Shown here in pieces: positions 16,967 to 31,229 of a stretch of 32,000 nt of DNA. Both the position numbers and the translations under genes were made by a program. The notes under the pieces are model-generated. The model worked only from the letters and a program-made list of their open reading frames with translations. It did no database searches and was not told where the DNA came from. Within the stretch, counting starts at the first letter, position 1, and every line of letters starts with the position of its first letter. Origin of the DNA: Geotalea uraniireducens Rf4 (lineage in GTDB: Bacteria > Desulfobacterota > Desulfuromonadia > Geobacterales > Geobacteraceae); contig NC_009483.1 in assembly GCF_000016745.1 (NCBI RefSeq), positions 3,270,001 to 3,302,000 on the forward strand, written 5' to 3'.

Positions 16967-18424
16967 TTATTCAAATGGGAAGCTGGAAATAGCGGTTATT
17001 TCTATTCTTTGCTCATTCCCGGTGCGAAGGTCGGCAGCAGAAACCTGGAGAATGCCGTCGACGTTAATAGTGAATGTCACCTCTATCTTCGGATCCCCCT
17101 TCGGTTCAGGAGGGATGTCCGCAAGCTCAAAAATGCCGAGACTCATATTATCACCGGCAGTCTCTTTCTCTCCCTGAAGGACGTGGATACTGACCGACGT
17201 CTGGTTATCGGCAGCGGTTGTAAATATCCTGTTTCTTGAGACGGGAACTGTGGTATTTCTGTCGACGATCCTGGTAAATGTCCCTCCTTGGGTCTCAATC
17301 CCCAGGGAGAGCGGCGTGACGTCCAGCAAAACGACGTCGCTGAACTCACCGGCAATGATCCCTCCCTGTATCGCAGCGCCAATGGCTACCACCTCGTCAG
17401 GGTTAATGCCGTCATGGCAAATCTTCGAATCGCCGAACAAATTCTTTGCAAGTTCCAGCACCGCGGGCATCCGGGTCGAACCACCAACGAGAATAACCCT
17501 GTCGATATCCTCGAACCTGAGCCTGGCATCGGAAAGCGCCTGCAGGGTGGGCCCTACCAGCTTTCGGAGGAGAGAGTCGGTTAATTCCTCGAAATCTTCC
17601 CGCGAAAGGCGTATAGGCAATATACTCCCATCCCTGGCATCTCCCCCCGTCAGGGCGTTAAGGGGAATGGTTATCTCAGCAACCATTTCACGAGACAGCT
17701 TTTTCTTAGCGAGTTCCGCCGTCTCTCTCAGGAACGATAAGGCCGCTTTATCTCTCAAAGGATCGATTCCGGTCTCCAGATGTATGATTCCGGCCAGATG
17801 CTTGACGATCCTTTGATCCCAGTCATCCCCGCCCAGATGGGTATCACCGTTGACCGCCATGACCTCGAATATCCCTTGGCCAAGTTCCAGGACGGAAACA
17901 TCGAATGTACCGCCACCCAAATCCCAGACGAGTACCGTATGGATCTCCTCCTTGTCCAGCCCATAGGCTAAAGCTGCGGCGGTCGGCTCGTTGATTATCC
18001 TTACCACATCCAGGCCGGCCACGATCCCGGCTTCCTTTGTGGCTTCGCGCTGTTCGTTGTTGAAATAGGCGGGGACCGTGATCACAACCTTCTCTATCCT
18101 TTCCCCCAGATACGCTTCCACATCTCCGACAACTTTGCGAAGGATCATCCCCGATATCCCTGCCGGTGTGTAAACATTTCCCCCCGCATGAAACCTTTGC
18201 AATGAGCCCATATACCTCTTGACCGAGACGATGGTCCCCTCGGGATTGCCGATCGCCTGGTGCAAAGCACCCTTTCCCGCCAGCATCCCGTCATCCGTGA
18301 AGGCCACCACCGAAGGGGTCAGATTTTCACCGTCCCCATTGGGAATAACCACAGGGCGTCCATTATCGAGAATGGCAACAACCGTATTGGTGGTCCCCAG
18401 ATCGATACCGATTATCCTGGACAT
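16967..18424 (-). CDS. Hsp70/DnaK-family chaperone lacking the C-terminal helical lid (485 aa); last gene of the gvp operon
   Basis: [35 protein letters not shown] and the interdomain linker [16 protein letters not shown] are present. The SBD-beta region runs to [29 protein letters not shown], and the protein ends ~12 aa later. The ATG at 18424 has GGAGG 4 nt upstream and overlaps the upstream gvpJ/M gene by 13 nt. Confidence 0.9.
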
Positions 18425-18651
18425 GGTTCCTCCGTAGCCCGAATTTCCTTGTCCCACTCCTCCATGACGCCATATTTGGTCATCGTTTCCATTCCGGCCA
18501 CGGCTGCCCTCAGGTTGACGCCGACCAAGGGGATGCCCGCAATGGAGATAACCAGGTCCGCATCCACTACGACCCCCTTGTCGAGGACCCTCTCCAGCAC
18601 ATCAACCAGCGTAATATTTCCTTTGCTTGCATGTTCCATATTCACCGTCAC
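18412..18651 (-). CDS. gvpJ/M: GvpA/J/M-family gas vesicle protein (minor structural paralog)
   Basis: The core TLVDVLERVLDKGVVVDADLVISIAGIPLVGVNLRAAVAGMETMTKYG matches the GvpA-family fold signature. The GTG start overlaps the upstream stop (GTGA). Confidence 0.85.
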   Translation of the reverse strand: MTVNMEHASKGNITLVDVLERVLDKGVVVDADLVISIAGIPLVGVNLRAAVAGMETMTKYGVMEEWDKEIRATEEPCPG

Positions 18652-19397
18652 ATGTCGACAAAGCTGTACGGCGGCCAGGGGCCGGTAGGGCGTACTGCGA
18701 TACCTTCCCTGAGGTTGATGATCTCCAGTTCCGCTGTCATCTCATCACGCCTTTCCCCGGGGACCAGGACCGACAGGTTCATGATCATCCGTACGCCGTT
18801 ATCTGCCGCCTTCACCTCTTCAATGATTATCCGTTCCGCCAGCTCCTCGATCCTCTGGTAGATATTCTCGAAATACCTTTCCTTCTCCCTTGCCATCTCG
18901 CGCTTTAACGCCTTTTCCAGGAGCTGGCCATGCATGTAAGCCGCTCCTGTCCCACCCTCCGTCTTCGCCTTGAGTTCCCTGAGGGCCGGCACACTATCCA
19001 CAAGCCTTCCTGCAACAAGATCCTCGTCCCAGAATACCTGGACACCGTATTCTTCCCTGCCCCTCAACCGGCCGATACTTTTTCGCAGTTCCCCGTGGTT
19101 TCCCCCCAGCCATCCATTGAGATCATCCGCCCCCCCCTTGATGACGGTATGGAATCTTACCGGGAGGATTGTTCCGAACCGCCTCCATGCCGTTTCAACC
19201 ACCTTCTGGTGGGAGACGACCCAGCCGATCATACTTTCTCTCTCCCAACAATCGGGCGGGTCTCCCTGGTAATTATGGACAATCGCAGACAGGCCTTCAA
19301 AATGAACAGTATAGACCTCGCTCCCATCTATCCCGATCCTTCCGAGCGAAATTTCCTCGTCCCCCTCCGCCACGCAATAGATATATCTACCTTCCAT
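18648..19397 (-). CDS. gvpF/L: GvpF/GvpL-family gas vesicle assembly protein
   Basis: The N-terminus is YIYCVAEGD...VYTVHFEGLSAIV, and the C-terminus is ...NLSVLVPGERRDEMTAEL...VRPTGPWPPYSFV, typical of GvpL/F. The start is set at the ATG at 19397 (GGAG 7 nt upstream), overlapping the end of gvpK. Confidence 0.85.
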   Translation of the reverse strand: MEGRYIYCVAEGDEEISLGRIGIDGSEVYTVHFEGLSAIVHNYQGDPPDCWERESMIGWVVSHQKVVETAWRRFGTILPVRFHTVIKGGADDLNGWLGGNHGELRKSIGRLRGREEYGVQVFWDEDLVAGRLVDSVPALRELKAKTEGGTGAAYMHGQLLEKALKREMAREKERYFENIYQRIEELAERIIIEEVKAADNGVRMIMNLSVLVPGERRDEMTAELEIINLREGIAVRPTGPWPPYSFVDM

Positions 19398-19677
19398 GCA
19401 AGTCTCCGCCAAGCACCCCTTCCACCAGGTTGTCCAGACTATCCCTCACAGACCTGACCGCCTCGGTAACACCGTTATCCTCTTTTATCTGTTCCACGAC
19501 CCTGTCAAACTCCATGAGGGACTTTCCCAGCCTTTCCACCTCCTCCGCGTTCAGGCTTCCGTTTTCCATCCGCCTTACGGCCTGGGTCTTGAGAAGATCC
19601 CTGATTATCTCCACCAGGGCAAGGACGAGCCCCAGAACCCCCTGCTTGAGATTGTCCTGCTCGATGTCGATATTCAT
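19387..19677 (-). CDS. gvpK: Gas vesicle protein GvpK
   Basis: GVLGLVLALVEIIRDLLKTQAVRRMENGSLNAEEVERLGKSLMEF is the characteristic GvpK core. Confidence 0.85.
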   Translation of the reverse strand: MNIDIEQDNLKQGVLGLVLALVEIIRDLLKTQAVRRMENGSLNAEEVERLGKSLMEFDRVVEQIKEDNGVTEAVRSVRDSLDNLVEGVLGGDLHGR

Positions 19678-19692
19678 GGGGATATTTTACTC

Positions 19693-20058
19693 CTAGAGAC
19701 TATAGTCGGTTGTATGGGCTGCAATCTTCGCCCTGGCGCTCTCCCAACCGCACCAGGGACAACCTGCGGCGATCAGTTCATCCACAGAAACCCTCTTTCC
19801 GCATTCGGGGCAGGTTTCCTTGGTCGTGATCCCCTCTTTCCAGGCAGGAGCCTCAAGATTGATCCCTGAAGGAAACGCCAGACCATACCTGGCCGCTACC
19901 TCAAAAGAGGCAATGCTCGCCCTGATCTTGATGCTGAGGAGTTCAGTCCCGACAATGGATATGGCAATGTCCGCATTGATGACTATTCCCTTGTCCAGGA
20001 TCCTGTCGAGCACATCCAGCAAGGAAGCGCTGTTGTTTATTGTCCCTTCTATGGCCAT
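19693..20058 (-). CDS. gvpJ: GvpA/J-family gas vesicle protein with a C-terminal CxxC-x13-CxxC zinc-ribbon extension
   Basis: The GvpA-family core is SLLDVLDRILDKGIVINADIAISIVGTELLSIKIRASIASFEVAARYG. A ~50-aa tail follows, containing CPECGKRVSVDELIAAGCPWC. The AAGGAG RBS lies 6 nt upstream. Confidence 0.85.
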   Translation of the reverse strand: MAIEGTINNSASLLDVLDRILDKGIVINADIAISIVGTELLSIKIRASIASFEVAARYGLAFPSGINLEAPAWKEGITTKETCPECGKRVSVDELIAAGCPWCGWESARAKIAAHTTDYSL

Positions 20059-20068
20059 CCGTTTCTCC

Positions 20069-20374
20069 TTAGTCCCTTAGAAAAATTATTTGCATGTTTT
20101 TTGCCAGCGTTGTCCGGTTTGGTTTGTGCATCAAGGTTGTTAAGCCCCATTAGGGGCGTTCGAATGTAGCCGGGGGATTCATCCCCCGGATGAGATGCTA
20201 TATTTCCCCACGTCACGTACGTGACGTGATGATATTTCGCCTGGATGACCGGGGAATGAATTCCCCGGCTACCAGTATTCTGTCCCTACGGGACGTAAGC
20301 AAAAACCAAACCGGACAACGCTGGTTTTTTGCGAAGAATTTTTCGTGAAGGGACTTATCCCGTTCATCGGGGTT
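20069..20374. repeat. Copy A of a 78-bp intergenic module, split into 35-bp and 43-bp halves by a MITE insertion
   Basis: 20069-20103 plus 20332-20374 are 100% identical to 25247-25324, by direct base-by-base comparison. Confidence 0.9.
20104..20324. mobile_element. MITE-like non-autonomous element (221 bp) with 22-bp perfect terminal inverted repeats and a 7-bp target-site duplication
   Basis: The TIR is CCAGCGTTGTCCGGTTTGGTTT at 20104-20125, with its reverse complement at 20303-20324. The flanking TTTTTTG is duplicated (20097-20103 and 20325-20331). An empty-site paralog at 25270-25285 carries a single TTTTTTG. The element has no ORF. Its interior is a chain of hairpins, including the perfect 20-bp palindrome CACGTCACGTACGTGACGTG. 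Confidence 0.8.
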
Positions 20375-20403
20375 AGGACCTGTTACGCGAGACTCTCTAT
20401 TTG

Positions 20404-22362
20404 TTACGCACCCGTCAGTTGACCAAGGGCTTCCACCCCCTTGACCGGACTCAGAAACAGCGGCACAACAGCAACGTCGTAGTCATTCCCCCACTTTGCC
20501 GTCACCTGCCGCAGATACTTTTCCTGCTCTCCCTTGCAGCAGCGGCATCCGGCAGGAGGGGTCACCATGTTGACGATTATATGCCTTGACGGGATACCCA
20601 ATCTCCTGATGCCGGAAAGGAGGCGTTCCGTTTCAAGGATGGCAAGGGATTCCGGAATGGTAACGGCAACAAATTCAGTTTGCAGGGAGTCGGTAAGGGC
20701 CTTTTTCACATTCTTTACATCCCTGAGCAGATTCATGATCCCTTCGGCGGCACAACCAAGCCGGACGATCTCCTTGTATTTAAGCAGCAGCCTGAGGATC
20801 GCCTTCAACCATTCAAGGACGATCTCTGGGGTTTCGAGGAAACGGAGCGCATGACCGGTGGGCGCAGTATCGATAACGAACAGGTCGTACGCCCCTCTCA
20901 GTTCGAGCATCTTCTTCAGGCCCATGATCTCGTCCAGTCCCGGGGGGGAAAGCTCGATAAGCCCCAGCATCACCTCTTTGTCAAAGGCGATATCTCCCCC
21001 TCCGGCGACGAAGGGGGAGAAAACCGCCTCGATGTCCGCGCAGTATTCTTTCTGGAATACGTTAAGCATGCGGGAGGCGTCCATCTCCAGTGCGAAGAGA
21101 TGTCCCCCCGCCGATGAGTCGATGATCGGCGTGACGGCATTTCCTATCGTGCGGTCGAAACAGTCCGACAACGAATGTGCGGGATCCGTGGAAAGTATCA
21201 GGATCTTCCTCTCCGGATTTTCCCTTGCCATATAAAGCGCTGTCGATGCGGCCATAGTGGTCTTGCCGACTCCTCCCTTGCCGCCGAAGAGAAGAAACTC
21301 CAGACCGGGTTTGCGCGCAAGCTCCGCTATGGCATTGCGAAAAGCCGCAAGGGTATAGTCGGGGGGAACGGGTGGTGAGGCAACATCTTTCCCGGCCGGA
21401 GCCGCGATTTTTACCGGCGCAAAGAGAAGCTCCGCAAATTTGCACAGGTTTTCAAATCCGTTGATTTCATGGTGGATAAGAGGGGCGAACACGAGATTGC
21501 AGTCGGCGAACCTCTCTCCGATTTCCGCCAGATACCCTTCGATCCCTTTCCTTCGCGAAGAACAGAACGGACAGTCCCCTCCCTCGACGACGCGATTGAC
21601 GATCAGGCTCCGCACCGCTATCCTATACTCCTTCAGGGATGCCAGCAGCCTGCCGGTTTCTTCGATCGCCGCCGGTTCGGGGATAGTCACCGGGACAAAT
21701 TCGGTCATCATGCCGTCCTTGAGAAGGGAATCCACTCGGTCCAGGTCGTCCGTCATCGTCTTCAGGAACTCATCCGTCGCGTCCCTCACGTACCGTCCCT
21801 TGAATCGTCTCAGGAGTAAACGGTGCTTCTCCTGCATCAGGTCAAAAACGGCAATCCATTTCTTCATCTGGGCCGGGAGGGCCAAAAGCCTCAGCGTGTG
21901 GCCGGTCGGCGCGGTATCGAGGACAATCAGGTCGAATTCGCCGGACTTCAAAAGCCTGACCACTTCAATGACCGCCATCACCTCGTCAAGCCCCGGCAGC
22001 GACAGGGAAAAGAACCCTTCGACGTCTTCCCGGTCAAAATAGGTCCCCCTTTCCGCCAGCTTTTTCATCACCCCTTCGTATTTTTTTCTGAAGTCCTGGA
22101 AGAGCTTGCGAGCGTCCATCTCCAGCAGCCAGAGATTATCAAGCTCATCGACCCGTGTGATATCCCCCCCGACGCTCCTCTCGAAACAGTCGCCCAGAGA
22201 ATGAGCCGGATCGAGGGAAATGAGAACCACCTTTTTCCCGGGCCTGAGCCGCGCCAGGTATATGGACGCAGCAGCTGCAGATGTGGTTTTTCCGCACCCC
22301 CCCTTTCCGCCGAACATTATCAGCCGGAGAGCCGGGTTATCAAGGAGCTTGGAGTTAGCCAC
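20404..22362 (-). CDS. Tandem-duplicated ArsA/Get3-family P-loop ATPase (pseudo-dimer) with a CxxC motif in each half
   Basis: It has two deviant Walker A loops (FGGKGGCGKTT; FGGKGGVGKTT), two DPAHSL motifs and two DTAPTGHTLR/DTAPTGHALR switch II motifs. CPFC follows IVNRV in half 1, and CRCC follows IVNMV in half 2. GTG start 6 nt after the gvpO stop. Confidence 0.9.
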   Translation of the reverse strand: MANSKLLDNPALRLIMFGGKGGCGKTTSAAAASIYLARLRPGKKVVLISLDPAHSLGDCFERSVGGDITRVDELDNLWLLEMDARKLFQDFRKKYEGVMKKLAERGTYFDREDVEGFFSLSLPGLDEVMAVIEVVRLLKSGEFDLIVLDTAPTGHTLRLLALPAQMKKWIAVFDLMQEKHRLLLRRFKGRYVRDATDEFLKTMTDDLDRVDSLLKDGMMTEFVPVTIPEPAAIEETGRLLASLKEYRIAVRSLIVNRVVEGGDCPFCSSRRKGIEGYLAEIGERFADCNLVFAPLIHHEINGFENLCKFAELLFAPVKIAAPAGKDVASPPVPPDYTLAAFRNAIAELARKPGLEFLLFGGKGGVGKTTMAASTALYMARENPERKILILSTDPAHSLSDCFDRTIGNAVTPIIDSSAGGHLFALEMDASRMLNVFQKEYCADIEAVFSPFVAGGGDIAFDKEVMLGLIELSPPGLDEIMGLKKMLELRGAYDLFVIDTAPTGHALRFLETPEIVLEWLKAILRLLLKYKEIVRLGCAAEGIMNLLRDVKNVKKALTDSLQTEFVAVTIPESLAILETERLLSGIRRLGIPSRHIIVNMVTPPAGCRCCKGEQEKYLRQVTAKWGNDYDVAVVPLFLSPVKGVEALGQLTGA

Positions 22363-22368
22363 ATGCCC

Positions 22369-22671
22369 CTACTCTTCCACTAACGTTTCGGCGCGCCTGC
22401 GCATCCCTTTGCGGCTGAATTCGAGCAGATTGCCGTGATTATCCAGTACGGCCTCATAGGTTGCAAGGATATCCATGTTATCAGGTATGACGCGCTTTTC
22501 CACCAGCTCGACCGACACTCGCCATCCCATCTCATCCTTCGCAGTCTTCAGCGTGGATGAAAGCTCCAGGCCGGTCAGAACGCTGAGCTCACTTCTTGCC
22601 TTCTGGATGATATTCCCGATAGACATCGCCATTTTTGCCGCCTCCGGCTGTTCAGACGAATCGACTTTCAT
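22369..22671 (-). CDS. gvpO: Gas vesicle protein GvpO
   Basis: The core LTGLELSSTLKTAKDEMGWRVSVELVEKRVIPDNMDILATYEAVLDNHGNLLEFSRKGMRRR matches my recollection of the GvpO family. The ATGA overlaps the gvpG stop. Confidence 0.8.
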   Translation of the reverse strand: MKVDSSEQPEAAKMAMSIGNIIQKARSELSVLTGLELSSTLKTAKDEMGWRVSVELVEKRVIPDNMDILATYEAVLDNHGNLLEFSRKGMRRRAETLVEE

Positions 22672-22907
22672 AATTCCTCTTTACGTTCCATGATCTCTTC
22701 CAGCCTGGCCATCAGTTCCGCTTCCTTGCTCAGATACTCTTCTTCGGTCATCTCATCGAGCTCAAAGCGCATCTGTAGTTCGAGAAGTTCCTCATGTATC
22801 CTGGAGTCGTCGGTCATCTCCGACTCAGCCATGTCCTTGAGTTTATCGGCTACCCAGACCAGCCCTTTTATGGGTGAAAGGAGAATGTCATCCAACAAAA
22901 AGATCAT
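22668..22907 (-). CDS. gvpG: Gas vesicle protein GvpG
   Basis: MIFLLDDILLSPIKGLVWVADKLKDMAESE...EEEYLSKEAELMARLEEI is the typical GvpG N-terminal hydrophobic helix plus acidic helix. The ATGA overlaps the upstream gene. Confidence 0.85.
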   Translation of the reverse strand: MIFLLDDILLSPIKGLVWVADKLKDMAESEMTDDSRIHEELLELQMRFELDEMTEEEYLSKEAELMARLEEIMERKEEL

Positions 22908-23881
22908 TCGACGACCCTTACCATTATGGCATCCTTCCCGAAAGCGAGGTTGCTGCAGCCCGTCAGGATTTTGTATGCCCGGCTGAACTTCTCGAAAATC
23001 ATCTGCGCATCGGGGTCGCCGGAATTATTGTCCGGGTGATACTTCCGGAGCTGCTTCCTATATGCCTTCCTGACCTCGTCCTTATCATCTCCAGGGACCA
23101 CGCCGATGATATTCATCGCTTCCTCAATCTCCCCGGCCCCTATTCTGCATATTTCCAGGGTATTGAAGCTGTGAGGAGGAAGCGGGCCTATGACCCGGAA
23201 GTTTATTCTGCCGCAATACCTCTTATCCAGCCCTTCTATCTGCTCATCCAGCGCGTTTTTCTTCTCACTCTCCACAAGAAAAGCCACGTTCAGCAGCATC
23301 CTGTCATCGAAATGCTCGCGGATCCTCTGCTCAAGGTGATGCTCCTTAAGAGCGAACAAAATTTCGTTCCCGACCCTCCCATTCTCCTCCTCCAGGGCCA
23401 CCCTGACCATTTTTCCCAGCTCTATGGCCGCCTCCCTAAGCTCTTCCCGGGATGCAGTTGCAATCTCTTCCTTGAACCGTCGAATCTCGTCTCTCTCCCC
23501 CAGTTCCCTCAATGTCGAATCCAGATCATTCCACAAGGCTATCAAATCCACCTCGACCTTGCCCGCCATGCTGTCGATCGCGTTTTTGAAGCAAGGGTAT
23601 CCCGATTCCAGTATTTCGAGAAGCTCCCCGTCATCCATGGCCGATGTCCCGAATTTTATCGGGACAGCCGTACACTCCTTCATAATCCCCTCGATCAGCG
23701 ACTGGTGGTTTGCCAGGTGCCGGACAAGGATATCCTTGGGAAGGGATGCGTAGTTTATGGGTGATGATTCCTTTACCACCAGGGCGATGTCGCGGTACGG
23801 CACGAGATAGGCGCAATCCCCCGAAACCGCCGCATCCCCGCCATCACGGCTTACAACGCAATAAAGATGCTTTGCCATCAT
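22904..23881 (-). CDS. GvpF/GvpL-family protein fused to a C-terminal DnaJ (J) domain
   Basis: Residues 1-245 are GvpL/F-like (HLYCVVS..., LLNVAFLVESEKKNALDEQI..., FRVIGPLPPHSFN). Residues ~250-305 are EIEEAMNIIGVVPGDDKDEVRKAYRKQLRKYHPDNNSGDPDAQMIFEKFSRAYKIL, with the diagnostic HPD tripeptide. Confidence 0.85.
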   Translation of the reverse strand: MMAKHLYCVVSRDGGDAAVSGDCAYLVPYRDIALVVKESSPINYASLPKDILVRHLANHQSLIEGIMKECTAVPIKFGTSAMDDGELLEILESGYPCFKNAIDSMAGKVEVDLIALWNDLDSTLRELGERDEIRRFKEEIATASREELREAAIELGKMVRVALEEENGRVGNEILFALKEHHLEQRIREHFDDRMLLNVAFLVESEKKNALDEQIEGLDKRYCGRINFRVIGPLPPHSFNTLEICRIGAGEIEEAMNIIGVVPGDDKDEVRKAYRKQLRKYHPDNNSGDPDAQMIFEKFSRAYKILTGCSNLAFGKDAIMVRVVE

Positions 23882-23888
23882 TGTCCCT

Positions 23889-24440
23889 TCAGGGCTTCTT
23901 CCTGGCCTTCTTTTTTGAAACTCTGATATCGAGGATGCCGTTTTTGTAAGAGGATTTGAGTGTGGCCGGATCGACAGACGATGGCAGGGGAATCTCTTTC
24001 ATGTATTTCCTGTCCTTATTCCCGGCCTTGAGGAAAAGGGTATCGCCTTTAACATCGATGCTGATGTGCTCATTTTCCACACCGGGCATCTCCGCAACCA
24101 CCACCACGTGATCCTTCTCATCGAACACGTCTATCATCGGCTCCCTGACCTCCTCCACCACAGGCCCTTTTGCGGTGTCCCTGACGTTACCGAAGGACTC
24201 TACAACGGGCTTGCCGCCCATGGTCCGCACCGTAAAGCCGTAGACACCTTTCGCCTCCTTAGGCATTCCCCTTATCTCACCCTCCTTGCGGATCTCTTCC
24301 CCCTTTTCAGCCGCTGTGGCGGCAAGGTCAATAAGGGTTCCAAGCCCCTTGAAGAGCCCTCCAAAAGAGACTTTGCCCAGACCGAAATCGATCTCTACCC
24401 CCTCTTCCTCTTTTTCCGCTTTCTTTTTTCTCTCAGCCAT
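23889..24440 (-). CDS. Hsp20/alpha-crystallin small heat-shock protein (GvpH-like position)
   Basis: The alpha-crystallin domain is IDVFDEKDHVVVVAEMPGVENEHISIDVKGDTLFLKAG...EIPLPSSVDPATLKSSYKNGILDIRV. A Lys/Glu-rich N-terminus precedes it. Confidence 0.88.
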   Translation of the reverse strand: MAERKKKAEKEEEGVEIDFGLGKVSFGGLFKGLGTLIDLAATAAEKGEEIRKEGEIRGMPKEAKGVYGFTVRTMGGKPVVESFGNVRDTAKGPVVEEVREPMIDVFDEKDHVVVVAEMPGVENEHISIDVKGDTLFLKAGNKDRKYMKEIPLPSSVDPATLKSSYKNGILDIRVSKKKARKKP

Positions 24441-24467
24441 GTTAACCCCCTGGTCCTCTTCTTCGCC

Positions 24468-25217
24468 TCATTTCCATTCCACGACTAGGTTCACAAAATT
24501 GAAAGGCGGTATTGGACCGACATATTTGAATATGAGCCTATCCTTGTTTGCGGCGTCGAGTTCCGTCATTCTCTCGTCAAACTCCCTTATCCGCCCACGT
24601 TCTACAAGGAAAGCCGCATTTAAATTCATGTTGTCTCCATGGAGTTTATTTACGCTGGTTCTGCGGGATATCGGCTTCAACTTGTCGAGGATATATCCCG
24701 CTTCCCGTTCCTTTCTGGCCACAAGCGCCGCCTGGACCATCCGGCCGAGGTTGATCCTGTCAGCGTAACACTTATCCGGCGGGACCGAGGCTATTTTCCC
24801 CTTCAGTCTCTTTATTTCCGGTTCCGTTTCTCCGATTTCATGAAATACCTCGTTTAAATCCTTCCAGAGGGACTTCACCCCGAGCTCCACCATGTTGTCC
24901 ATATCCCTAAGGAGTTCCTTGAACTCCATATATCTCTTTCTCAACACCCTGCGGATATCTTCCACGCTTTCAGCGACGGTGCAGAACCTCACAGGGAGGA
25001 CCGTATGATCCTTCATGACCTCTTCGATGACCTTCTGATGGGCCAGCAGATTTTCTCTGGTAAGGGTGTATTTGATCACAGGGGTCCCGCTGATAACTGC
25101 AGCGATGTTCTCGCAATTTATGGTGGTTACCACATCTCCACGGCCACCGATCCCCATGGGACCGAAATTTCTCGCGTCATCAGTCCCTATGATGCAATAT
25201 AAATAATTGTTTTCCAC
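24468..25217 (-). CDS. gvpF/L: GvpF/GvpL-family gas vesicle assembly protein
   Basis: YLYCIIGTDD..., LLAHQKVIEEVMKDHTVLPVRF, NLNAAFLVERGRIREFDERM and FKYVGPIPPFNFV. The GTG start has GGAGA 6 nt upstream. Confidence 0.85.
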   Translation of the reverse strand: MENNYLYCIIGTDDARNFGPMGIGGRGDVVTTINCENIAAVISGTPVIKYTLTRENLLAHQKVIEEVMKDHTVLPVRFCTVAESVEDIRRVLRKRYMEFKELLRDMDNMVELGVKSLWKDLNEVFHEIGETEPEIKRLKGKIASVPPDKCYADRINLGRMVQAALVARKEREAGYILDKLKPISRRTSVNKLHGDNMNLNAAFLVERGRIREFDERMTELDAANKDRLIFKYVGPIPPFNFVNLVVEWK

Positions 25218-25246
25218 CCATGGTCTCCGAAATACAAAATTCCCTC

Positions 25247-25324
25247 TTAGTCCCTTAGAAAAATTATTTGCATGTTTTTTGCGAAGAATTTTTCGTGAAG
25301 GGACTTATCCCGTTCATCGGGGTT
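25247..25324. repeat. Copy B (intact) of the 78-bp intergenic module; contains an interrupted palindrome
   Basis: Identical to the split copy A. On the minus strand it reads AGTCCCTT-cac-GAAAAATT-(21 nt)-AATTTTTC-t-AAGGGACT, that is, two 8-bp arm pairs. It lies immediately upstream of the RBS of the downstream gvp gene. Confidence 0.9.
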
Positions 25325-25342
25325 TGTATGAGGGGTCTTATC

Positions 25343-25660
25343 TCAATAATCCATAACCATCGTCTTGAATTTTTCCTTTGCCCCCTTCGGAGCATTTTCT
25401 TTGGAATTCCTTTTCCCGTCTTCCTTCAATACGGTTTTTCCAATATTTATTATTTCTTTTCCGAGATCTTTCAGGTCATCCTCTATACTCTTCTTTCTCT
25501 TGAGCAGGGCGTGCAACTCCAATTCCAGTTTGGTCCTTTTCCGCGTCAATACATAGAGGTCAAGGTAGCGGTTCACCGAAGCCTTCGGCACGGAACGGAT
25601 TTTCGTTCTTGGGGCGGTTCTTGGAGCGGTTCTTATAATTGATCCACTTGTAATGCTCAC
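25343..25660 (-). CDS. Small basic coiled-coil protein in the gvpV position (tentative GvpV-like)
   Basis: GTG start with a GGAGGG RBS 7 nt upstream. It has an N-terminal RTAPRTAPRT repeat and then RYLDLYVLTRKRTKLELELHALLKRKKSIEDDLKDL. It sits directly after gvpN, as gvpV does in Serratia/Anabaena-type clusters. Homology is not verifiable here. Confidence 0.5.
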   Translation of the reverse strand: MSITSGSIIRTAPRTAPRTKIRSVPKASVNRYLDLYVLTRKRTKLELELHALLKRKKSIEDDLKDLGKEIINIGKTVLKEDGKRNSKENAPKGAKEKFKTMVMDY

Positions 25661-25686
25661 GTTGCAACCCTCCGTTTTTTTCAGCT

Positions 25687-26709
25687 TTACAGCATGCTGA
25701 CTGCCTTGTCACCCACCGCTATTCTCTGGCCGACCTTAAGGGACGGTTTCGTATCCGTATTCATTTCCCCGGCTTCAGGGTTACTCCCACAGTGCCTGTC
25801 AACCAGTTCAGCTATGAACTCCTTAACCTTTTTTATATTGGCATCGCTTCCCACCCTGCTCGTTTCCGAGGCAAGTACATCAGTGCAGATACTCCTGAAT
25901 ATTTTGTTCCCCGCTTCGACCGCGGCCTTTCTTACCTTCGCAGTCTTTGCAATCATGATGCATCCCCTCACAGTGGGTGCAAACTCGTATTTCCCGGAAT
26001 CCCTGAGACTCCTGACGATATTCACAATTTTTTCCGAATCGTGCAGGGGCAATCCCGACTTTGCCGAGGTTATAGCCATTTCCGTCTCCTTGTCAGGATA
26101 GCTGATGTCTATCGTGACCATCCTGTCCCGCAGAGCGTCCTGGCTCCTGTAGACTCCCGCATACTCCTCGGGATTGCTTGTAAAGATCGCGACAAAATCC
26201 GGGTGCACCTTGAGATACCCTTCTCCCCCCCTTGCAGTGGGCATGCCCATCATCTTTTCCTGCAGGACAGACAGGAGAACGTTATTGGCTTCGGGCCTGG
26301 ACCTGGTAAATTCGTCATAGATCAGAGTGAACCCTTTTTTGCAGGCCAGCGTCAGCCGGCTGTCTATCCAGGAACTGTTCATGCTCTCTTCAGTCTTCAG
26401 GACTGAATGAATGAAGTTGTCCACGACCTTCTTTTTCCTGTAGCCATGCTGCCCCCCCACCAGGTCGGATGTGGAATGCTCCTCGTCACCATGCATGATA
26501 ACGAGCGGCCTGCCGAGCTTACTGGCAACATGCATGGCAATTGTGGTCTTGCCTGTACCTGAGGTCCCCCTGAAGTGGACGGGGAAACCAGCAGCAATAT
26601 AGGCAAGAGCCCGCTCCGTCACATCCCGGACATAGTCCGTTTCCACAAAGTTCGGCAAAGAACGGGGCTCTAAAACGGTCGCCAGTACTTCAGCATTTTC
26701 TTCCTGCAT
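25687..26709 (-). CDS. gvpN: Gas vesicle AAA+ ATPase GvpN (CbbQ/NirQ/NorQ/GvpN family)
   Basis: Walker A FRGTSGTGKTTIAMHVA, Walker B LIYDEFTRS, and an arginine-finger region. The size is ~340 aa. The AAGGAGAG RBS lies 6 nt upstream. Confidence 0.9.
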   Translation of the reverse strand: MQEENAEVLATVLEPRSLPNFVETDYVRDVTERALAYIAAGFPVHFRGTSGTGKTTIAMHVASKLGRPLVIMHGDEEHSTSDLVGGQHGYRKKKVVDNFIHSVLKTEESMNSSWIDSRLTLACKKGFTLIYDEFTRSRPEANNVLLSVLQEKMMGMPTARGGEGYLKVHPDFVAIFTSNPEEYAGVYRSQDALRDRMVTIDISYPDKETEMAITSAKSGLPLHDSEKIVNIVRSLRDSGKYEFAPTVRGCIMIAKTAKVRKAAVEAGNKIFRSICTDVLASETSRVGSDANIKKVKEFIAELVDRHCGSNPEAGEMNTDTKPSLKVGQRIAVGDKAVSML

Positions 26710-26760
26710 AGGCTCTCTCCTTGATTGGACCTATATTCCGGAATCCTGTTGCCTGAATAA

Positions 26761-27015
26761 TTAACAGGCTGCTGGAAAACACCGGAGTTTGAATGTTGTC
26801 CTGAACGCAGCATGGAACCTCTCAAACAGGTTATACCAATTCCAAATCAAGGCGCTATCTTCGTTGGCTCGTCTTCGGCTCCTCAACGTACGCAGTTGTA
26901 CGCCTTCGTCGCCTCAATCCTCGCCGCCTTGATTTCATCCTTGATTTGAAATTGGAATTACTCCCGCACCTTGTTCAGGATTCATCAGGTGTCAGTTTTC
27001 TCAACAGCCCGTTAA
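26761..27015. repeat. About 255-bp imperfect long inverted repeat filling most of the 385-bp gap upstream of gvpN (degenerate MITE or structured RNA)
   Basis: The outer arms are TTAACAGGCTGCTGG... and ...CTCAACAGCCCGTTAA. The inner arms are AATTCCAAATCAAGG and CCTTGATTTGAAATTGGAATT. The central hairpin is CGTAC-GCAGTT-GTACG. The arms were aligned by eye with several mismatches and indels. Confidence 0.5.
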
Positions 27016-27094
27016 AGGTTGTGCCATGCAGCGGGTCAGGTTCGATATTCTGCGGCACGGACCGCCTTCGGTTCAAGGACTCCTTGAAACCACT

Positions 27095-27430
27095 TTATTG
27101 TTTCGCACTTTTCCTGGCAGCGCCGCCTCTTTTCGCCTGCATAGTGGAGCCCAAGTGCCCCCATGCAGCAATTGCGTCGTCGTGCTCCTTTTTGAAACCC
27201 TTGAGAAGATTGCTCGTCTCTTTCTTCATGGAGTACCTTGCCTTGGAAAGATCCTGCCTGAGCTGTGACGCCATCTCACCCCGCTCCTTGTGAAGATCGT
27301 CAAGCATCCTGTGGACATCGTCAGTCATTTCGTGGACATCCTTTTTGATGGATGCAAGAACAGCCATCCTTTCATCAAAAGAAGCGGTAATATCCTGGGC
27401 TAGTGCCTTGAATCCGTCTACTCTTGCCAT
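27095..27430 (-). CDS. Hypothetical charged alpha-helical protein (111 aa) inside the gvp operon
   Basis: AAGGAG RBS 8 nt upstream. The sequence is rich in heptad-like charged helices (DERMAVLASIKKDVHEMTDDVHRMLDDLHKERGEMASQLRQDL). No family is recognised. Confidence 0.6.
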   Translation of the reverse strand: MARVDGFKALAQDITASFDERMAVLASIKKDVHEMTDDVHRMLDDLHKERGEMASQLRQDLSKARYSMKKETSNLLKGFKKEHDDAIAAWGHLGSTMQAKRGGAARKSAKQ

Positions 27431-27457
27431 TTTGGTATCTCCTTTCTTTTGAATTTT

Positions 27458-28105
27458 TCAACCCTGCCATGCCGTCTTGTCATAGAAACTGAACACCCCT
27501 TCCCACTGAGCGGCCACTTCCCGGCGTATCCTGTCAAACTCATCCAGTATCCGGTCTATCTCGTCACTGGATTCCCTGTCACGGTTACCGAGCGTCTTAA
27601 CCACGGATTTCAAGTCCTTTATCCTTACCTCCTCCCCTTTGGACAAAAGATTTTTCAATGCCGCTATCAACTCTTCCTGCTCCAGCTGGAACTTCATCAG
27701 TGACTTTGCCACCTCTTTCTCTCGTTCCCTGAGCCGCAAAAGGATATCCCTCTTCATTATTTCAAAATCGGCAGGGTTGCAATTCCCGGTGAGGACCTTC
27801 TTCAAGATGAGGATCATCTCCCCTTCTTCCTGCCATATAGTTTCCAGCTGCTGCCGGGTTTTTGTCTCTCTTTCTCTCCTCTTGGCCAGGACGGTTTCCA
27901 TCAGGGCATCAAAGTCCTTTTTTCTCATCCCCCCATGCCTCGAGAGATTTTCCTTCAAACGTCTGCTCATCTCATCCTGTTCCCTGCAATAGTTATTCAC
28001 ACGTTTCATTGCTTCAACAACGAGAGTATTGACAAGCTTTAACCGCTTTTCGTACGATTTTATGATCTCCAACCCTATAGTTCTCAAAGGTTCCTGAAAC
28101 TCCAT
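27458..28105 (-). CDS. Charged helical repeat protein in the gvpC position (candidate GvpC functional analogue)
   Basis: The ATG at 28105 has GGAG 6 nt upstream. There are two clear ~47-aa internal repeats: KKDFDALMETVLAKRRERETKTRQQLETIWQEEGEMILILKKVLT and PADFEIMKRDILLRLREREKEVAKSLMKFQLEQEELIAALKNLLS. It lies directly downstream of gvpA. Confidence 0.6.
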   Translation of the reverse strand: MEFQEPLRTIGLEIIKSYEKRLKLVNTLVVEAMKRVNNYCREQDEMSRRLKENLSRHGGMRKKDFDALMETVLAKRRERETKTRQQLETIWQEEGEMILILKKVLTGNCNPADFEIMKRDILLRLREREKEVAKSLMKFQLEQEELIAALKNLLSKGEEVRIKDLKSVVKTLGNRDRESSDEIDRILDEFDRIRREVAAQWEGVFSFYDKTAWQG

Positions 28106-28195
28106 TTCCAACTCCGCTCATAATCCTTGTACGGTTTCGCGTCTACTGTTTGTGTGAATGGAGATGGAGACATGCTTGAGTAACTTGTTTATAAT

Positions 28196-28215
28196 AAAGG
28201 GGCATTGGCGCCTTT
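28196..28215 (-). terminator. Weak hairpin after gvpA (possible attenuating terminator)
   Basis: AAAGGGGC-ATTG-GCGCCTTT forms a stem with one mismatch. On the minus strand it is followed by ATTATAAAC. Marginal. Confidence 0.2.
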
Positions 28216-28253
28216 ATGCCTCAAGGATGTCCTCCGCGTCGATTTTTCGGATC

Positions 28254-28472
28254 TTACGCATGCATTGCCGTCGCAGTGGTTGTAAGGCCTACTGCCTCGG
28301 CATACTTAAGGAAAGTATCCACAGAGGCAACAACGACCCTCGCTTCGATAGCGAGAAGCTCGATCCCCACTAAGGAAACCCTTGCCCAAGCATCGATACA
28401 TACGCCCTTGTCCAGGATCCTGTCGATTACCTCGACGAGACTGGAAGATGCATTTGTTTTCTCAACTGCCAT
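28254..28472 (-). CDS. gvpA: Major gas vesicle structural protein GvpA
   Basis: [63 protein letters not shown] is nearly identical in pattern to canonical GvpA. The start is set at the ATG at 28472, with an AGGGGG RBS, not the GTG at 28481. Confidence 0.95.
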
Positions 28473-28617
28473 GATATTCACCCCCTTTCTTTGAACTGGC
28501 GTGACACTCTAAACCCTTTATTCCATCGATCGATACGGAGCGATCCGTCTCACGCAAATCTTTTCCGCATGCGTCGTCGGTTACTTCAAAGTTTAGAGAT
28601 ATCTAATAAGAGACTAT

Positions 28618-28633
28618 TACAAGAGGTATGCCA
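28618..28633 (-). promoter_or_regulatory. Candidate sigma54 (-24/-12) promoter for gvpA: TGGCAT-N5-TTGTA
   Basis: The minus strand reads TGGCATACCTCTTGTA. The -24 GG and the spacing are correct, but the -12 element is GT instead of GC. It lies ~136 nt upstream of the gvpA ATG and downstream of an NtrC-type activator gene. Confidence 0.3.
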
Positions 28634-28726
28634 TAAATGTATTTATTGCTAAAAAAACTCTGAACCAGTTGATATATCGTGCTTTTCATTCGATAAAATA
28701 ATGGTACATCCATTCATTCCAGACTA

Positions 28727-30187: not shown

Positions 30188-31229
30188 CTTTTCTCCCATC
30201 GGCCGGAAGAAGAATAGAAACGGTTGTCCCTACGCCTTCCTTGCTGGTGACCGTAATCCTGCCGTTATGCTCTCTGACGATGTTCCTGACAATGAAGAGC
30301 CCAAGACCGTTCCCGTTGCACTTGGTAGTATGGAACGGTTTGAAAATCGTCTTCATATCCTTTTCGGATATCCCGATGCCGCTGTCCGTAACCTCCACAA
30401 GAACCGCGTCCTTTCCGTCGAGATCAACTCTCTTTGCCGCTACGGAAAACTTTCCTCCGTTGGGCATCGCCTCGATTGAGTTCTTGACCAGGTTCAGAAA
30501 TACCTGCTTCAAGCGATGGGGATTGCAGCATACTATCGGAAGATTATCCTCGATGGATGCCTCGATCACCACGCCGTGCCCCTCACATTCCTTCTCGACA
30601 AAGTGCAGGATCTGTGAAAGGCTGCTGCAGATATCGTGAAAAACGATCTGTTCTTTATTGGGCCTCGAAAACTCCGAAATGTCTTTCAACAACTCGTGCA
30701 TCCTGTCGATGTTTTCCATGACCACCTGGCTGTACATGGTCAAATCGCCGCCCATCCTTGTCAGGTGGTCGTTAAGGAATCGCATGGTGGATTTCATGAT
30801 CCCCAGCGGATTCCCGATTTCGTGGGTGATGCAGGTGGCCAACTGTCCCATGGCAAAGAGCTTTTCCGCCTGCAGAAACTTCTCCTCCAGCCACATCCTT
30901 TCCGACAGCTCTTCCATGAGGACGATGATCCCGTCCGGCGTAACGGATGTTGCGCTTTTCATCACGACCCTCAGGTCAATACCGTTGTTCAGGCGAAGCC
31001 TGCTTTCCCTTCTGCCGACCTCCCCCCCCAAAACATCTTCCATCATCCCCTTGAGAGTATCGTCCGGGACAATTTCGGAAAAGGGCCTGTTCAGAATTTC
31101 TTCGTCGATTGAAAAGAGATCCATGAAATCGCTGTTGGCCGCTTGAATGCGGAACTCACTCCCGAGGAGGAGGGCCGCCATGGGTATTGCCTCGAAAACA
31201 TGCGGGAACAGCAGGGATACTTCATTCAT
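30174..31229 (-). CDS. Cytoplasmic PAS-HisKA-HATPase sensor histidine kinase (GvrB-like position)
   Basis: It has an N-terminal PAS-like region, the H-box ATCITHEIGNPL, the N-box LNLVKNSIEAM, and G-boxes DSGIGI and GNGLGLFIVRNIV. GAGGTGA RBS. Confidence 0.85.
   Translation of the reverse strand: MNEVSLLFPHVFEAIPMAALLLGSEFRIQAANSDFMDLFSIDEEILNRPFSEIVPDDTLKGMMEDVLGGEVGRRESRLRLNNGIDLRVVMKSATSVTPDGIIVLMEELSERMWLEEKFLQAEKLFAMGQLATCITHEIGNPLGIMKSTMRFLNDHLTRMGGDLTMYSQVVMENIDRMHELLKDISEFSRPNKEQIVFHDICSSLSQILHFVEKECEGHGVVIEASIEDNLPIVCCNPHRLKQVFLNLVKNSIEAMPNGGKFSVAAKRVDLDGKDAVLVEVTDSGIGISEKDMKTIFKPFHTTKCNGNGLGLFIVRNIVREHNGRITVTSKEGVGTTVSILLPADGRKDENA

Follow-up and report, generated by a model that had tools for sequence, protein, structure and literature searches.

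A 219-bp MITE-like element nested in an older small repeat of a gas-vesicle operon

What is the hairpin-rich insert that separates the ArsA-like gene from gvpJ in this gas-vesicle (gvp) operon, how did it come to lie there, and does it alter the expression of the genes behind it? The window analyzed here is the whole stretch of 32,000 nucleotides. In it, the gene upstream of the interrupted spacer belongs to the gvp cluster and encodes an ArsA-family ATPase with two domains (20404-22362, minus strand; Pfam PF02374, E = 8e-131), and a GvpA/J-family gas vesicle protein (19693-20058, minus strand; Pfam PF00741) is encoded downstream. These assignments agree with a preliminary description that placed the insert in the middle of a gas-vesicle operon, between the ArsA-like gene and gvpJ, and regarded it as a MITE. 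Our analysis supports a non-autonomous transposable element lying beside its empty site; the best explanation overall is very probably a MITE, a non-autonomous DNA transposon whose family abounds in Geobacteraceae.

Boundaries, anatomy, and copies of the element

The MITE proper spans 219 bp (CAGCG…CGCTG; 20105-20323), with bounds derived from comparison with 75 paired family members, and folds as a near-palindromic chain of hairpins with an interior that we call type A. Its left terminal inverted repeat (TIR) of 21 bp, CAGCGTTGTCCGGTTTGGTTT (20105-20125, plus strand), is conserved in all family members, and the right 21-bp TIR (20303-20323, minus strand) is the exact complement of the left; a repeat search of the window extends the inverted arms to 26 nt at 96% (25/26). 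The element is flanked by two copies of the 9-bp target-site duplication (TSD) GTTTTTTGC, at 20096-20104 and 20324-20332; the left copy is read from the window letters, and the 9-bp rule for both comes from the family. The centre is occupied by the perfect 20-bp palindrome CACGTCACGTACGTGACGTG (20209-20228), which is conserved in all type-A copies. The predicted RNA fold of the element has an energy of -128.4 kcal/mol (z = -13 versus shuffles), no ORF of at least 60 aa occurs within it in the ORF list of the window, and its G+C content of 53% is close to the 52% of the window. Thus, the lack of coding capacity, the hairpin chain, and the central palindrome noted in the preliminary description are all borne out, and every string that it quoted is present where it was placed.

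The limits of the element, however, had to be redrawn. The preliminary description gave a 221-bp element with 22-bp TIRs and a 7-bp TSD, which the 75 paired copies correct to 219 bp, 21 bp, and 9 bp, respectively, the former model being one base off on each side. The longer model is readily understood from the letters of this locus: TTTTTTG stands at both ends of the MITE (20097-20103 and 20325-20331), and the 22-mer CCAGCGTTGTCCGGTTTGGTTT at 20104-20125 has its exact reverse complement at 20303-20324, these being the 2 matches in the window at up to three mismatches versus 0 in 100 shuffles. The first letter of GTTTTTTGC is G and the last is C, so that at this locus the duplication looks like one more base pair of the TIR. 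In other copies, the bases adjoining CAG…CTG follow the logic of a direct repeat and not that of an inverted repeat, and the position that follows CTG holds no conserved G; any of the four bases can stand there, in keeping with the duplication.

The paired copies used for boundaries and duplications (n = 75) come from Geobacteraceae genomes and from metagenomes. Their 9-base flanks are identical at 9/9 positions in 51 of 75 and at 8/9 in nine more, while offset control flanks subjected to the same comparison peak at 2/9. The duplications represent 43 distinct insertion sites and are 70% A+T; because there are 43 different flanks, one locus assembled repeatedly is unlikely. The preliminary description had staked its reading on the existence of other copies or related TIRs, and these are plentiful: besides the 43 duplicated sites, a 19-mer of the TIR has 20 matches in GTDB species representatives, 16 of them in Geobacteraceae or Desulfuromonadales MAGs, and matches on 114 metagenome contigs. 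Full-length relatives of the window element, 78-99.5% identical, lie at unrelated loci. The closest (99.5%, in L125) is flanked by TAATATAAT, and it suggests that the MITE was recently active, whereas copies of 78-92% identity occur in L097/L081, L004/L013/L108, L116, L080, L093, and L015. The family falls into main size classes of 177-180, 218-219, and 236 bp. Thus, the insert is shorter than about 600 bp, noncoding, bounded by TIRs and a TSD of fixed length, and represented by further copies and by empty sites, as expected of a MITE.

The same CAGCG-type TIRs carry either the type-A core or quite different interiors with unrelated G-rich hairpin cores. These G-rich cores recur in another MITE family, which has TGCAYTGTAACA ends and duplicates CTAG.

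As for mobilization, we infer that a DDE-type transposase, encoded elsewhere by an IS with matching (CAGCGTTGTCCGG-type) ends, would bind the 21-bp TIRs, and that the MITE would have inserted at a 9-bp staggered cut in A+T-rich DNA, with gap repair producing the GTTTTTTGC duplication. No transposase was found in the window, nor in the solo-TIR loci, where the recurrent ORFs are housekeeping genes (gltX, ABC ATPases, an MCP, and a glucanotransferase), and no match was found in the plasmid and viral collections. One candidate IS end, CAGCGTTGTCCGGTTTGGTCTTTGCATAGTTCTTTGAG…, is found with at least four different flanks, and contig ends always cut it at 127 nt or less.

Empty sites and order of insertion

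The MITE does not interrupt unique spacer DNA. Together with one TSD copy, it splits a 72-bp small repeat (20073-20372), which is uninterrupted in a sister strain and is itself flanked by a 4-bp TTAG duplication (20069-20072 and 20373-20376). An uninterrupted paralogous copy of the 72-bp element (25251-25322) lies upstream of gvpF/L and serves as an empty site within the window; it is contained in an uninterrupted 78-bp module (25246-25323) with a single TTTTTTG, and the two module copies in the window are identical over 78 bp and 5 kb apart. When the flanks of the MITE are joined, they match the empty copy at 36/36 positions, a match that the window contains a single time and shuffled sequences not at all, and the empty form of the junction reads TTCTTCGCAAAAAACATGC. 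The target GTTTTTTGC is single in the empty copy (25274-25282) and sits in the apical loop of the hairpin formed by the 72-bp element. Both the empty-site paralog and the insertion into the module loop had been proposed in the preliminary description, and the exact match confirms the former, while the position of the target in the hairpin loop agrees with the latter.

Empty sites are also found outside the window. The sister strain, represented by three independent assemblies (L146/L147/L149) with 98-99% nucleotide identity, likewise has the module between ArsA and gvpJ, but there TTCTTCGCAAAAAACATGCAAATAAT is continuous and the MITE is absent. Datasets with the sister strain are ERZ27247098, 3300029959, and 3300027566, and those with the window-type strain are SRR29904084, SRR9436595, and SRR9436596. 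Further intact module copies occur in L101 (100%) and L104 (98.7%), with TTAG on each side of both, so that the 4-bp flanks of the 72-bp element read TTAG/TTAG at window site 1, L101, and L104 and TTAG/TTTG at window site 2. In the orthologs L023-L027, both the 72-bp module and the MITE are absent and CTAA is present once; because CTAA is single in ortholog L023, the TTAG duplication of the 72-bp element is confirmed. Orthologs with 75-84% ArsA identity have an ArsA-gvpJ spacer of 34-58 bp, and the spacer upstream of gvpF/L measures 48-73 bp in the orthologs versus 125 bp here. Logan contigs that encode the exact GvpJ and ArsA of the window end inside the 78-bp repeat, and an exact-match look-up with GvpG for module site 2 of the sister strain returned one short Logan contig.

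Two identical 78-bp copies 5 kb apart could in principle convert each other, and the 219 bp might then be ancestral, with the empty copies produced by precise deletion or by gene conversion between modules. The present evidence already contradicts this reading, whose probability we regard as practically nil. The orthologs at 75-84% identity have neither module nor MITE; four MITE-free module copies are at hand (the window paralog, L101, L104, and the sister strain); the filled site is an exact 9-bp duplication of a sequence that is single in every empty copy; and near-identical copies of the element lie elsewhere. The MITE-free sister strain and orthologs show that the filled form is not the ancestral one, which answers a doubt raised in the preliminary description.

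The insertion is therefore nested: an older, TTAG-flanked small element came first, and the MITE entered its hairpin loop later. As a first step, the TTAG-duplicating 72-bp element settled between the ArsA-like gene and gvpJ, with a second copy upstream of gvpF/L; as a second step, the 219-bp MITE inserted into the A/T-rich apical loop of the 72-bp hairpin, recently and in this lineage only.

The older element resembles small MITEs of the IS5-family type. IS5 insertion produces a 4-bp duplication of a YTAR-type target. Likewise, the 72-bp element shows a 4-bp YTAR-type duplication (TTAG/CTAA), perfect in 3/4 copies, and it is small, contains an internal inverted repeat, and occupies intergenic spacers. 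However, an extra CCCGTTCATCGGGG hairpin at one end keeps its two termini from forming clear inverted repeats, and no IS matching this host element was identified.

Interior modules and relation to known repeats

While the ends and flanks of the element identify a transposon, its interior contains sequences that resemble a motif catalogued as RNA. A two-hairpin module at 20143-20189 (minus strand) matches Rfam RF01687 (Acido-Lenti-1) at 36.3 bits, and a second, inverted copy at 20249-20295 (plus strand) matches at 32.8 bits; both lie below the gathering score of 37 bits, with E about 5e-7 for the window matches. The modules share with RF01687 the two-hairpin architecture and a conserved GGCUA linker. 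The same inverted pair is found in L125, L108, and L116, and the copy of the module in L015 reaches 43.4 bits, above the gathering score. RF01687 was catalogued as a putative sRNA that acts in trans in Acidobacteria and Lentisphaerae, whereas here the motif forms an inverted, sub-terminal pair within a transposon.

It could be argued that the insert is primarily a structured-RNA locus, encoding either a convergent pair of sRNAs of the Acido-Lenti-1 type or an RNA that regulates the gvp operon in cis, and that the inverted ends and flanking repeats are incidental. The two matches just under the gathering score, the relative above it, and the few compensatory changes seen in the small hairpin among type-A copies would be in keeping with this, as would the study of Weinberg et al. 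(2010), in which the Acido-Lenti-1 motif was judged a probable RNA with covariation (PMC2864571). However, the same 219 bp recurs at unrelated loci with different 9-bp duplications, and neither the sister strain, at 98-99% identity, nor any of the orthologous gvp operons contains it. Moreover, every Acido-Lenti-1 match in 40 kb of related loci lies inside a MITE copy, and the RF01687 seed itself behaves as a repeat element, consisting mostly of arrays and inverted pairs within few genomes. As an explanation of the origin of the insert, the structured-RNA reading is refuted, and we hold it to be highly improbable in any form. One seed sequence comes from G. uraniireducens and has flanks homologous to the core of the window element. 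In G. uraniireducens Rf4, a sequence homologous to the type-A interior (73% identity over 125 nt) occurs without these TIRs, and the homologous palindrome there reads CGTCGCGTACGCGACG. [quoted passage not shown]

On the plus strand, 20143-20189 reads as a GTAG motif plus a GC-rich palindrome and is thus REP-like. The core contains an inverted doublet of such units, each a GTAG-type head with a GC-rich imperfect palindrome (20166-20189 and 20249-20272), and reads GTAGCCGGGGGATTCATCCCCCGG … CCGGGGAATGAATTCCCCGGCTAC on the plus strand. Inverted GTAG plus GC-palindrome units are reportedly the architecture of REPs and REPINs, as Nunvar in 2010 and Bertels and Rainey in 2011 are said to have described. 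The window core likewise has two inverted units of this kind with a spacer between them, and GTAG plus GC-rich palindrome units also occur in arrays in other phyla, as in the Acido-Lenti-1 seed.

Accordingly, the whole element or its core could be a REPIN-like doublet moved by a RAYT, with the outer inverted repeats being just part of the hairpin. The architecture of the core, its homolog without these TIRs in Rf4, and the occurrence of the same TIRs with quite different interiors speak for this. However, REPINs have neither TIRs nor a TSD, while the window element possesses 21-bp TIRs and a 9-bp TSD; movement of the RAYT/IS200 type gives no target duplication and needs no TIRs, whereas 60/75 copies have 9-bp duplications matching at 8/9 or better that exactly abut the CAG…CTG ends. 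This makes RAYT-driven movement a very unlikely account, and the MITE reading remains the one we prefer.

Since the same TIRs enclose different interiors, core and ends are separable modules. It is conceivable, although we consider it rather unlikely, that the RF01687 motif is not an sRNA and instead a REP-like hairpin cassette that moves between transposon chassis; the CAGCG TIRs with varied cores, the G-rich cores in the TGCAYTGTAACA family, and the TIR-less core in Rf4 fit this reading. If it were true, the window element would be a composite that two unrelated enzymes could mobilize, a DDE transposase and a Y1 RAYT-like transposase, and MITE interiors would constitute an exchangeable pool of structured modules, seeded repeatedly into operon spacers such as those of gvp.

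Among named families, the closest counterpart is Chunjie, a MITE of Geobacter uraniireducens Rf4 reported by Chen, Zhou, Li, and Xu (2008, Genetics 179:2291) and characterized here from later accounts (PMC3184786, PMC10969869, PMC6042816). In these accounts, Chunjie measures 178-235 bp and has 21-bp TIRs, 9-bp direct repeats, and RNA folding energies of -98 to -130 kcal/mol (PMC3184786); a 235-bp copy lies in the pst operon (PMC10969869), and a 219-bp reference copy is given at NC_009483.1:2632106-2632324 with the direct repeat ACGACCGGT (PMC6042816). Chunjie and the window family agree in bacterial family, TIR length, and direct-repeat length. They also agree in size, the 178, 219, and 236 bp of the window family standing against 178-235 bp for Chunjie, whose named copies measure 219 and 235 bp, and in folding energy, which at -128 kcal/mol for the window element lies within the range quoted above. 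For each, a copy was found within an operon, and a paralogous operon or segment provides the empty site. Chunjie is described there as having many partial copies without TIRs, of which the Rf4 core homolog (73% over 125 nt) would be one. On contigs that encode a PstB 100% identical to that of G. uraniireducens, a 178-bp member of our family follows phoU at a distance of about 100 bp.

However, the window MITE has 53% G+C, whereas a secondary source calls Chunjie 'A+T rich', and it was inserted into the loop of a further small mobile element, in the gvp operon, whereas the host operon reported for Chunjie is pst. In the large spacers of the pst operon on L142, a further Rf4-like contig with such a PstB, no element with a 9-bp direct repeat and 21-bp TIRs was found; the TIR 19-mer with a 5' C has no match in a G. 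uraniireducens genome in the GTDB scan; and the TIR string does not occur in the literature searched. Judged from the published description, the window family is probably Chunjie or a very close relative. In other respects, the element is an ordinary MITE, apparently active in recent times, and opens no new category.

Consequences for the gas-vesicle operon

Without the MITE, the untranslated ArsA-gvpJ spacer would measure about 117 nt; with it, the length is 345 nt. The 72-bp element reaches up to the Shine-Dalgarno sequence CTAAGGAG of the downstream gene (19693-20058). According to structure prediction, the spacer forms a single long coaxial hairpin with a stem of about 150 bp; the stem of the MITE is stacked on that of the module, and the Shine-Dalgarno sequence remains unpaired.

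The preliminary description had suggested that the MITE may attenuate or terminate read-through or supply an outward promoter. On the sense (minus) strand, no intrinsic terminator was found, the hairpin being followed by CAAAAAAC without a U-run; the sense strand at the end of the hairpin reads …CGCUGGCAAAAAAC, and only the antisense strand has a T-run. Neither the element nor the module yielded a sigma-70-like promoter. At the junction of the MITE end with its flank, TGGCAAAAAACATGCA displays the -24/-12 spacing of sigma-54, and a sigma-54 activator is encoded at 28727-30199 in the window; as a promoter candidate, however, this site was rejected, with a score of 9/12 that nine window sites reach and that shuffled sequences reach about 11 times per window. 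In the absence of a predicted sense-strand terminator or promoter, the suggested effect on expression is unsupported. The hairpin lacks a sense U-tract, and the ribosome-binding site of gvpJ is predicted to lie outside the stem; read-through is therefore to be expected, with possible processing of the RNase III type. We infer from these predictions that the effect of the MITE on expression is probably near neutral.

The sister strain provides a comparison for the same spacer. It harbors a different, 190-bp element in the ArsA-gvpJ spacer, 12 bp away, and a 130-bp element between gvpJ and gvpK, which indicates that the gvp spacers tolerate, or attract, small inserts. These inserts also speak for the proposal that the MITE was co-opted as an attenuator, a processing site, or a new promoter, and that it thereby changes how strongly the distal genes (gvpJ-K-F/L-J/M-hsp70) are expressed relative to the proximal ones (gvpF/L…ArsA). 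The lengthened spacer, the dsRNA-like stem in the operon transcript, the intact state of all ORFs downstream of the insertion, and the sigma-54 spacing with an activator nearby could be cited in its favor as well. However, the hairpin lacks a sense U-tract, no sigma-70-like promoter was found, the sigma-54-like site is at the level of shuffled sequence, and presence or absence among near-identical strains fits a neutral, recent insertion. Co-option is in our judgment unlikely, and a near-neutral MITE insertion is the reading we retain.

If there is any effect, the most plausible model by analogy is RNase III processing as in the Correia elements. The hairpins of these Neisseria elements are cut by RNase III, and mRNA stability can change as a result. 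Correia elements (CREE) and the window MITE are both small MITEs with TIRs (about 100-160 bp in Correia) that occupy operon spacers and are co-transcribed as long hairpins. However, the TA duplication, IHF sites, and outward promoters belong to Correia elements only, and the sequences are unrelated.

The boundaries of a widespread Geobacteraceae MITE family are hereby settled: its members end in CAG…CTG, have TIRs of 21 bp, and duplicate an A/T-rich target of 9 bp. For the gas-vesicle operon, two strains that are 98-99% identical and carry a different small element in the same ArsA-gvpJ spacer constitute a clean natural experiment, in which it could be measured directly how long hairpin inserts affect read-through of the operon and the stoichiometry of the Gvp proteins.

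Boundaries and anatomy of the MITE

The window contains a perfect 22-nt inverted repeat (20104–20125 and 20303–20324; 2 matches versus 0 in 100 shuffles), the arms of which lengthen to 26 nt at 96% identity in a repeat search, with TTTTTTG at either side. The inverted repeat and flanking duplication of the preliminary description were borne out, whereas its dimensions (221 bp, 22-bp terminal inverted repeat [TIR], and 7-bp target-site duplication [TSD]) were not. When the ends were read in related copies, the conserved termini were CAG…CTG, and the duplicated target was 9 bp, as in the copies at loci L125 (TAATATAAT), L097 (AAAAAATAT), L004 (AAGAAGATC), and L116 (AATCATTTT). The 9-bp flanks were identical at all nine positions in 51 of 75 paired copies and at eight positions in another 9, whereas offset control flanks had a mode of 2/9 and a maximum of 6. 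The family occupies 43 different insertion sites, and its duplications are 70% A+T. The MITE thus spans 20105–20323 (219 bp, 21-bp TIRs) between TSD copies of GTTTTTTGC at 20096–20104 and 20324–20332; counts from the single locus gave 22 and 7 bp because the first G and the last C of GTTTTTTGC are complementary by chance.

Overall, the MITE is a near-palindrome built of nested inverted repeats around a perfect 20-bp palindrome at its center (20209–20228), which agrees with the chain of hairpins described previously. It folds stably both as RNA (−128.4 kcal/mol, z = −13) and as DNA (−69.5 kcal/mol, z = −12), and the proposed lack of coding capacity holds, as no ORF of ≥60 aa lies within it. Every quoted string of the element and its flanks was found in the window, and the observation itself is confirmed with corrected boundaries.

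Empty sites and likely consequences for the gas-vesicle operon

Pfam assignments agree that the MITE lies inside a gas-vesicle operon, between the ArsA gene (20404–22362) and gvpJ (19693–20058). Read along the minus strand, the cluster (16967–31229) comprises a histidine kinase, a sigma-54 response regulator, a gvpN-like AAA gene, a 105-aa gene, an empty module, gvpF/L, hsp20, a gvpF/L–DnaJ fusion, gvpG, gvpO, the ArsA-type ATPase, the filled module, gvpJ, gvpK, gvpF/L, a gvpA/J-like gene, and hsp70. The kinase and regulator adjoin the cluster, and no sigma-54 promoter scoring ≥10/12 was found anywhere in the window. The remainder of the window consists of chromosomal housekeeping genes and has no transposase. 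Its CoaX is 91% identical to that of Geotalea sp. SG265 and 84% to that of G. uraniireducens, and the top named ArsA matches are Geobacteraceae MAGs (75% identity).

The joined flanks of the MITE recur exactly once, at 25259–25294 within the common 78-bp module (25246–25323), giving the empty-site paralog that had been claimed. This module consists of a 72-bp element with an internal hairpin and an additional CCCGTTCATCGGGG hairpin, plus a 4-bp TTAG/CTAA duplication, and its copies occupy two intergenic sites of the operon (20069–20376 and 25247–25326). Copies with TTAG at either side are also present in the related contigs L101 (4741–4818, 100% identical) and L104 (2462–2539, 98.7%). Comparing the window with distant orthologous clusters in L023–L025 (ArsA 84% identical) and in L026 and L027 (75%), the ArsA–gvpJ spacer is 345 bp versus 34 to 58 bp, and the spacer ahead of gvpF/L is 125 bp versus 48 to 73 bp; the 72-bp element is absent from these more distant orthologs. 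Where the window has CTAA, module, and CTAA, the alignment to L023 has a single CTAA; the module must therefore have inserted here and is a small mobile element in its own right.

The most telling comparison was with a sister strain, located by an exact-match look-up of GvpK in three independent assemblies (L146, L147, and L149), 98 to 99% identical to the window over the gvp cluster. Its 72-bp element is at the same ArsA–gvpJ position with the loop, TTCTTCGCAAAAAACATGCAAATAAT, uninterrupted, which makes this spacer a true orthologous empty site. As both strains share the 72-bp element, it is the older insertion, whereas the 219 bp are not ancestral but recent and lineage specific. The perfect TIRs, the perfect TSD, and a 99.5% identical copy in L125 agree with a recent insertion. 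The MITE reading is therefore upheld by the derived filled state as well as by further copies.

The sister strain carries a different, 190-bp inverted-repeat element inside the same module, 12 bp further along (L146 3275–3464, also in L147 and L149; TIR CCTA…CCACAGAGACACAGAGACA, ATAAT repeat). Another element of 130 bp (L146 3857–3986, also in L147 and L149; TIR TGCAYTGTAACA, CTAG duplication, G-rich hairpin core) separates its gvpJ from gvpK; in the window, 15 bp lie between the two genes. The spacers of the gvp operon are evidently hot spots for insertion. The window itself has a third small inverted-repeat element of 132 bp (26830–26961), which, with 23-nt TIRs at 87% identity (GTTATACCAATTCCAAATCAAGG/CCTTGATTTGAAATTGGAATTAC), occupies the spacer between a 111-aa gene and the gvpN-like gene; approximately 91% identical copies are present in L121, L074, and L001, and no clear TSD was seen around it. 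Short-read Logan contigs of the locus (L021, L022, L148, L150, and L151) systematically break within the 72-bp repeat or where the small elements lie, so automated assembly would conceal such insertions and leave the gvp operon in pieces.

It had been suggested that the MITE attenuates or terminates transcription or supplies an outward promoter, for which we found no support. On the sense (minus) strand, the MITE hairpin and the 72-bp element's stem are predicted to stack into one long structure (−161 kcal/mol for the spacer), outside which the gvpJ Shine–Dalgarno remains. Past the hairpin, this strand reads CAAAAAAC, and the T-run is on the antisense strand; therefore, it is no intrinsic terminator for the operon. 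No sigma-70-like promoter was predicted, and a sigma-54-like junction at the MITE end scored at chance level. Our best estimate from these predictions is read-through with little effect. RNase III–type processing is known for Correia elements, and by analogy the spacer may possibly be processed in the same way.

Family members, exchangeable interiors, and mobility

The TIR 19-mer has 20 matches in GTDB species representatives, 16 of which are in Geobacteraceae/Desulfuromonadales MAGs; the rest look like chance matches. A TIR scan of JGI metagenomes returned 114 contigs, and the majority of TIR matches are inverted pairs with 94 to 263 bp between them. Full-length relatives are present at unrelated loci, with identities to the MITE of 99.5% (L125), 91.8% (L097/L081), about 89% (L093), 88.6% (L004/L013/L108), 88.2% (L116), 84.6% (L080), and 78.5% (L015), and a 236-bp variant among relatives carries a 17-bp internal duplication. 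In L019 (3649 region), a family member is flanked by a perfect 17-bp inverted repeat, CCTTGATCCCCTTTATC/GATAAAGGGGATCAAGG, formed by its flanks in place of a direct repeat, which points to nesting within another palindromic element or to rearranged ends.

Two sub-terminal modules of the MITE match Rfam Acido-Lenti-1 (RF01687) just below the gathering score of 37, at 20143–20189 (minus strand, 36.3 bits) and 20249–20295 (plus strand, 32.8 bits). Further matches are in L015 (2864–2909, 43.4 bits), L125 (8483–8529 and 8589–8635), L108, L116, and L055, and all those in 40 kb of related loci fall inside MITE copies. The RF01687 seed alignment is largely made up of arrays and inverted pairs from few genomes, and the flanks of its one G. 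uraniireducens sequence are homologous to the MITE core. On the plus strand, the sub-terminal module is GTAG followed by a GC-rich palindrome, which is REP architecture. Judged by these alignments, "Acido-Lenti-1 RNA" looks like a REP-like repeat-element module rather than a free-standing sRNA, at least in Geobacteraceae.

In the family survey (L001–L016 and L028–L141), the CAGCG TIRs hold two or more unrelated interiors. In type A, to which the window MITE belongs, REP-like hairpins accompany a palindrome at the center, and the elements are 219 or 236 bp long. Type B has CCCCTCCC/GGGAGGGG hairpins and is mostly 178 bp long. The survey also includes shorter forms (94 to 130 bp). Unrelated G-rich hairpin interiors occur under the same TIRs, and similar ones recur in another MITE family whose ends differ. 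Because the same TIRs enclose unrelated cores and G-rich cores recur under other ends, ends and interiors look modular and exchangeable.

The fixed 21-bp TIRs, fixed 9-bp duplication, and A/T-rich targets are the signature of DDE-type transposition, suggesting that the MITE would be moved by a DDE enzyme supplied in trans, either by cut-and-paste or replicatively. No transposase was found at the solo-TIR loci, where the ORFs are housekeeping genes. Candidate ends of an autonomous IS are at L031, L041, L089, L120, and L129 (contig ends) and at L037 and L075. One end variant with the same 21-bp TIR (CAGCGTTGTCCGGTTTGGTCTTTGCATAGTTCTTTGAGAATGTAAAAAAGTTG…; TIR then GCATAGTTCTTTGAGAATGTAAAAAAGTTGTAAAATCAGCG…) adjoins no fewer than four different flanking sequences, and in every case the contig stops within 127 nt. 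A multicopy IS with long TIRs would appear so in short-read assemblies, making this variant a candidate IS end; a sister variant that diverges after approximately 50 nt may be the other end.

Relation to Chunjie

Chunjie, a published MITE of Geobacter uraniireducens Rf4, is described in part by citing papers as 178 to 235 bp with 21-bp TIRs, 9-bp direct repeats, and an RNA ΔG of −98 to −130 kcal/mol (PMC3184786). A 235-bp copy lies in one of two pst operons, with 37 other full and 57 partial copies (PMC10969869), and the reference copy is 219 bp (PMC6042816). By these descriptions, the window family matches Chunjie in geometry and in its three size classes (178, 219, and 236 bp here). A 178-bp family member lies just past phoU on contigs with a PstB 100% identical to that of G. 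uraniireducens, and the Rf4 genome has a homolog of the type-A core without TIRs. Two points count against membership: the GTDB species-representative scan gave no G. uraniireducens match for the TIR 19-mer, and a secondary source applies the term A+T-rich to Chunjie.

Separately, among pstSCAB–phoU contigs of a G. uraniireducens–like genome (L053/L054 versus L142), two that are 99.7% identical over 5 kb diverge approximately 50 bp past phoU: a 178-bp family member (TSD CCTTTCATT) is present in one and missing from the other. The pstB–phoU spacers of both are filled with heptad tandem repeats (GACTCAC/TACTCAC) forming a long inverted repeat.

Compared by published description rather than by sequence, the window family is rather likely to be Chunjie; if not, the two are sister families of one kind. 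The window MITE belongs to a known kind of element and has been active recently, and its family probably already has a name.
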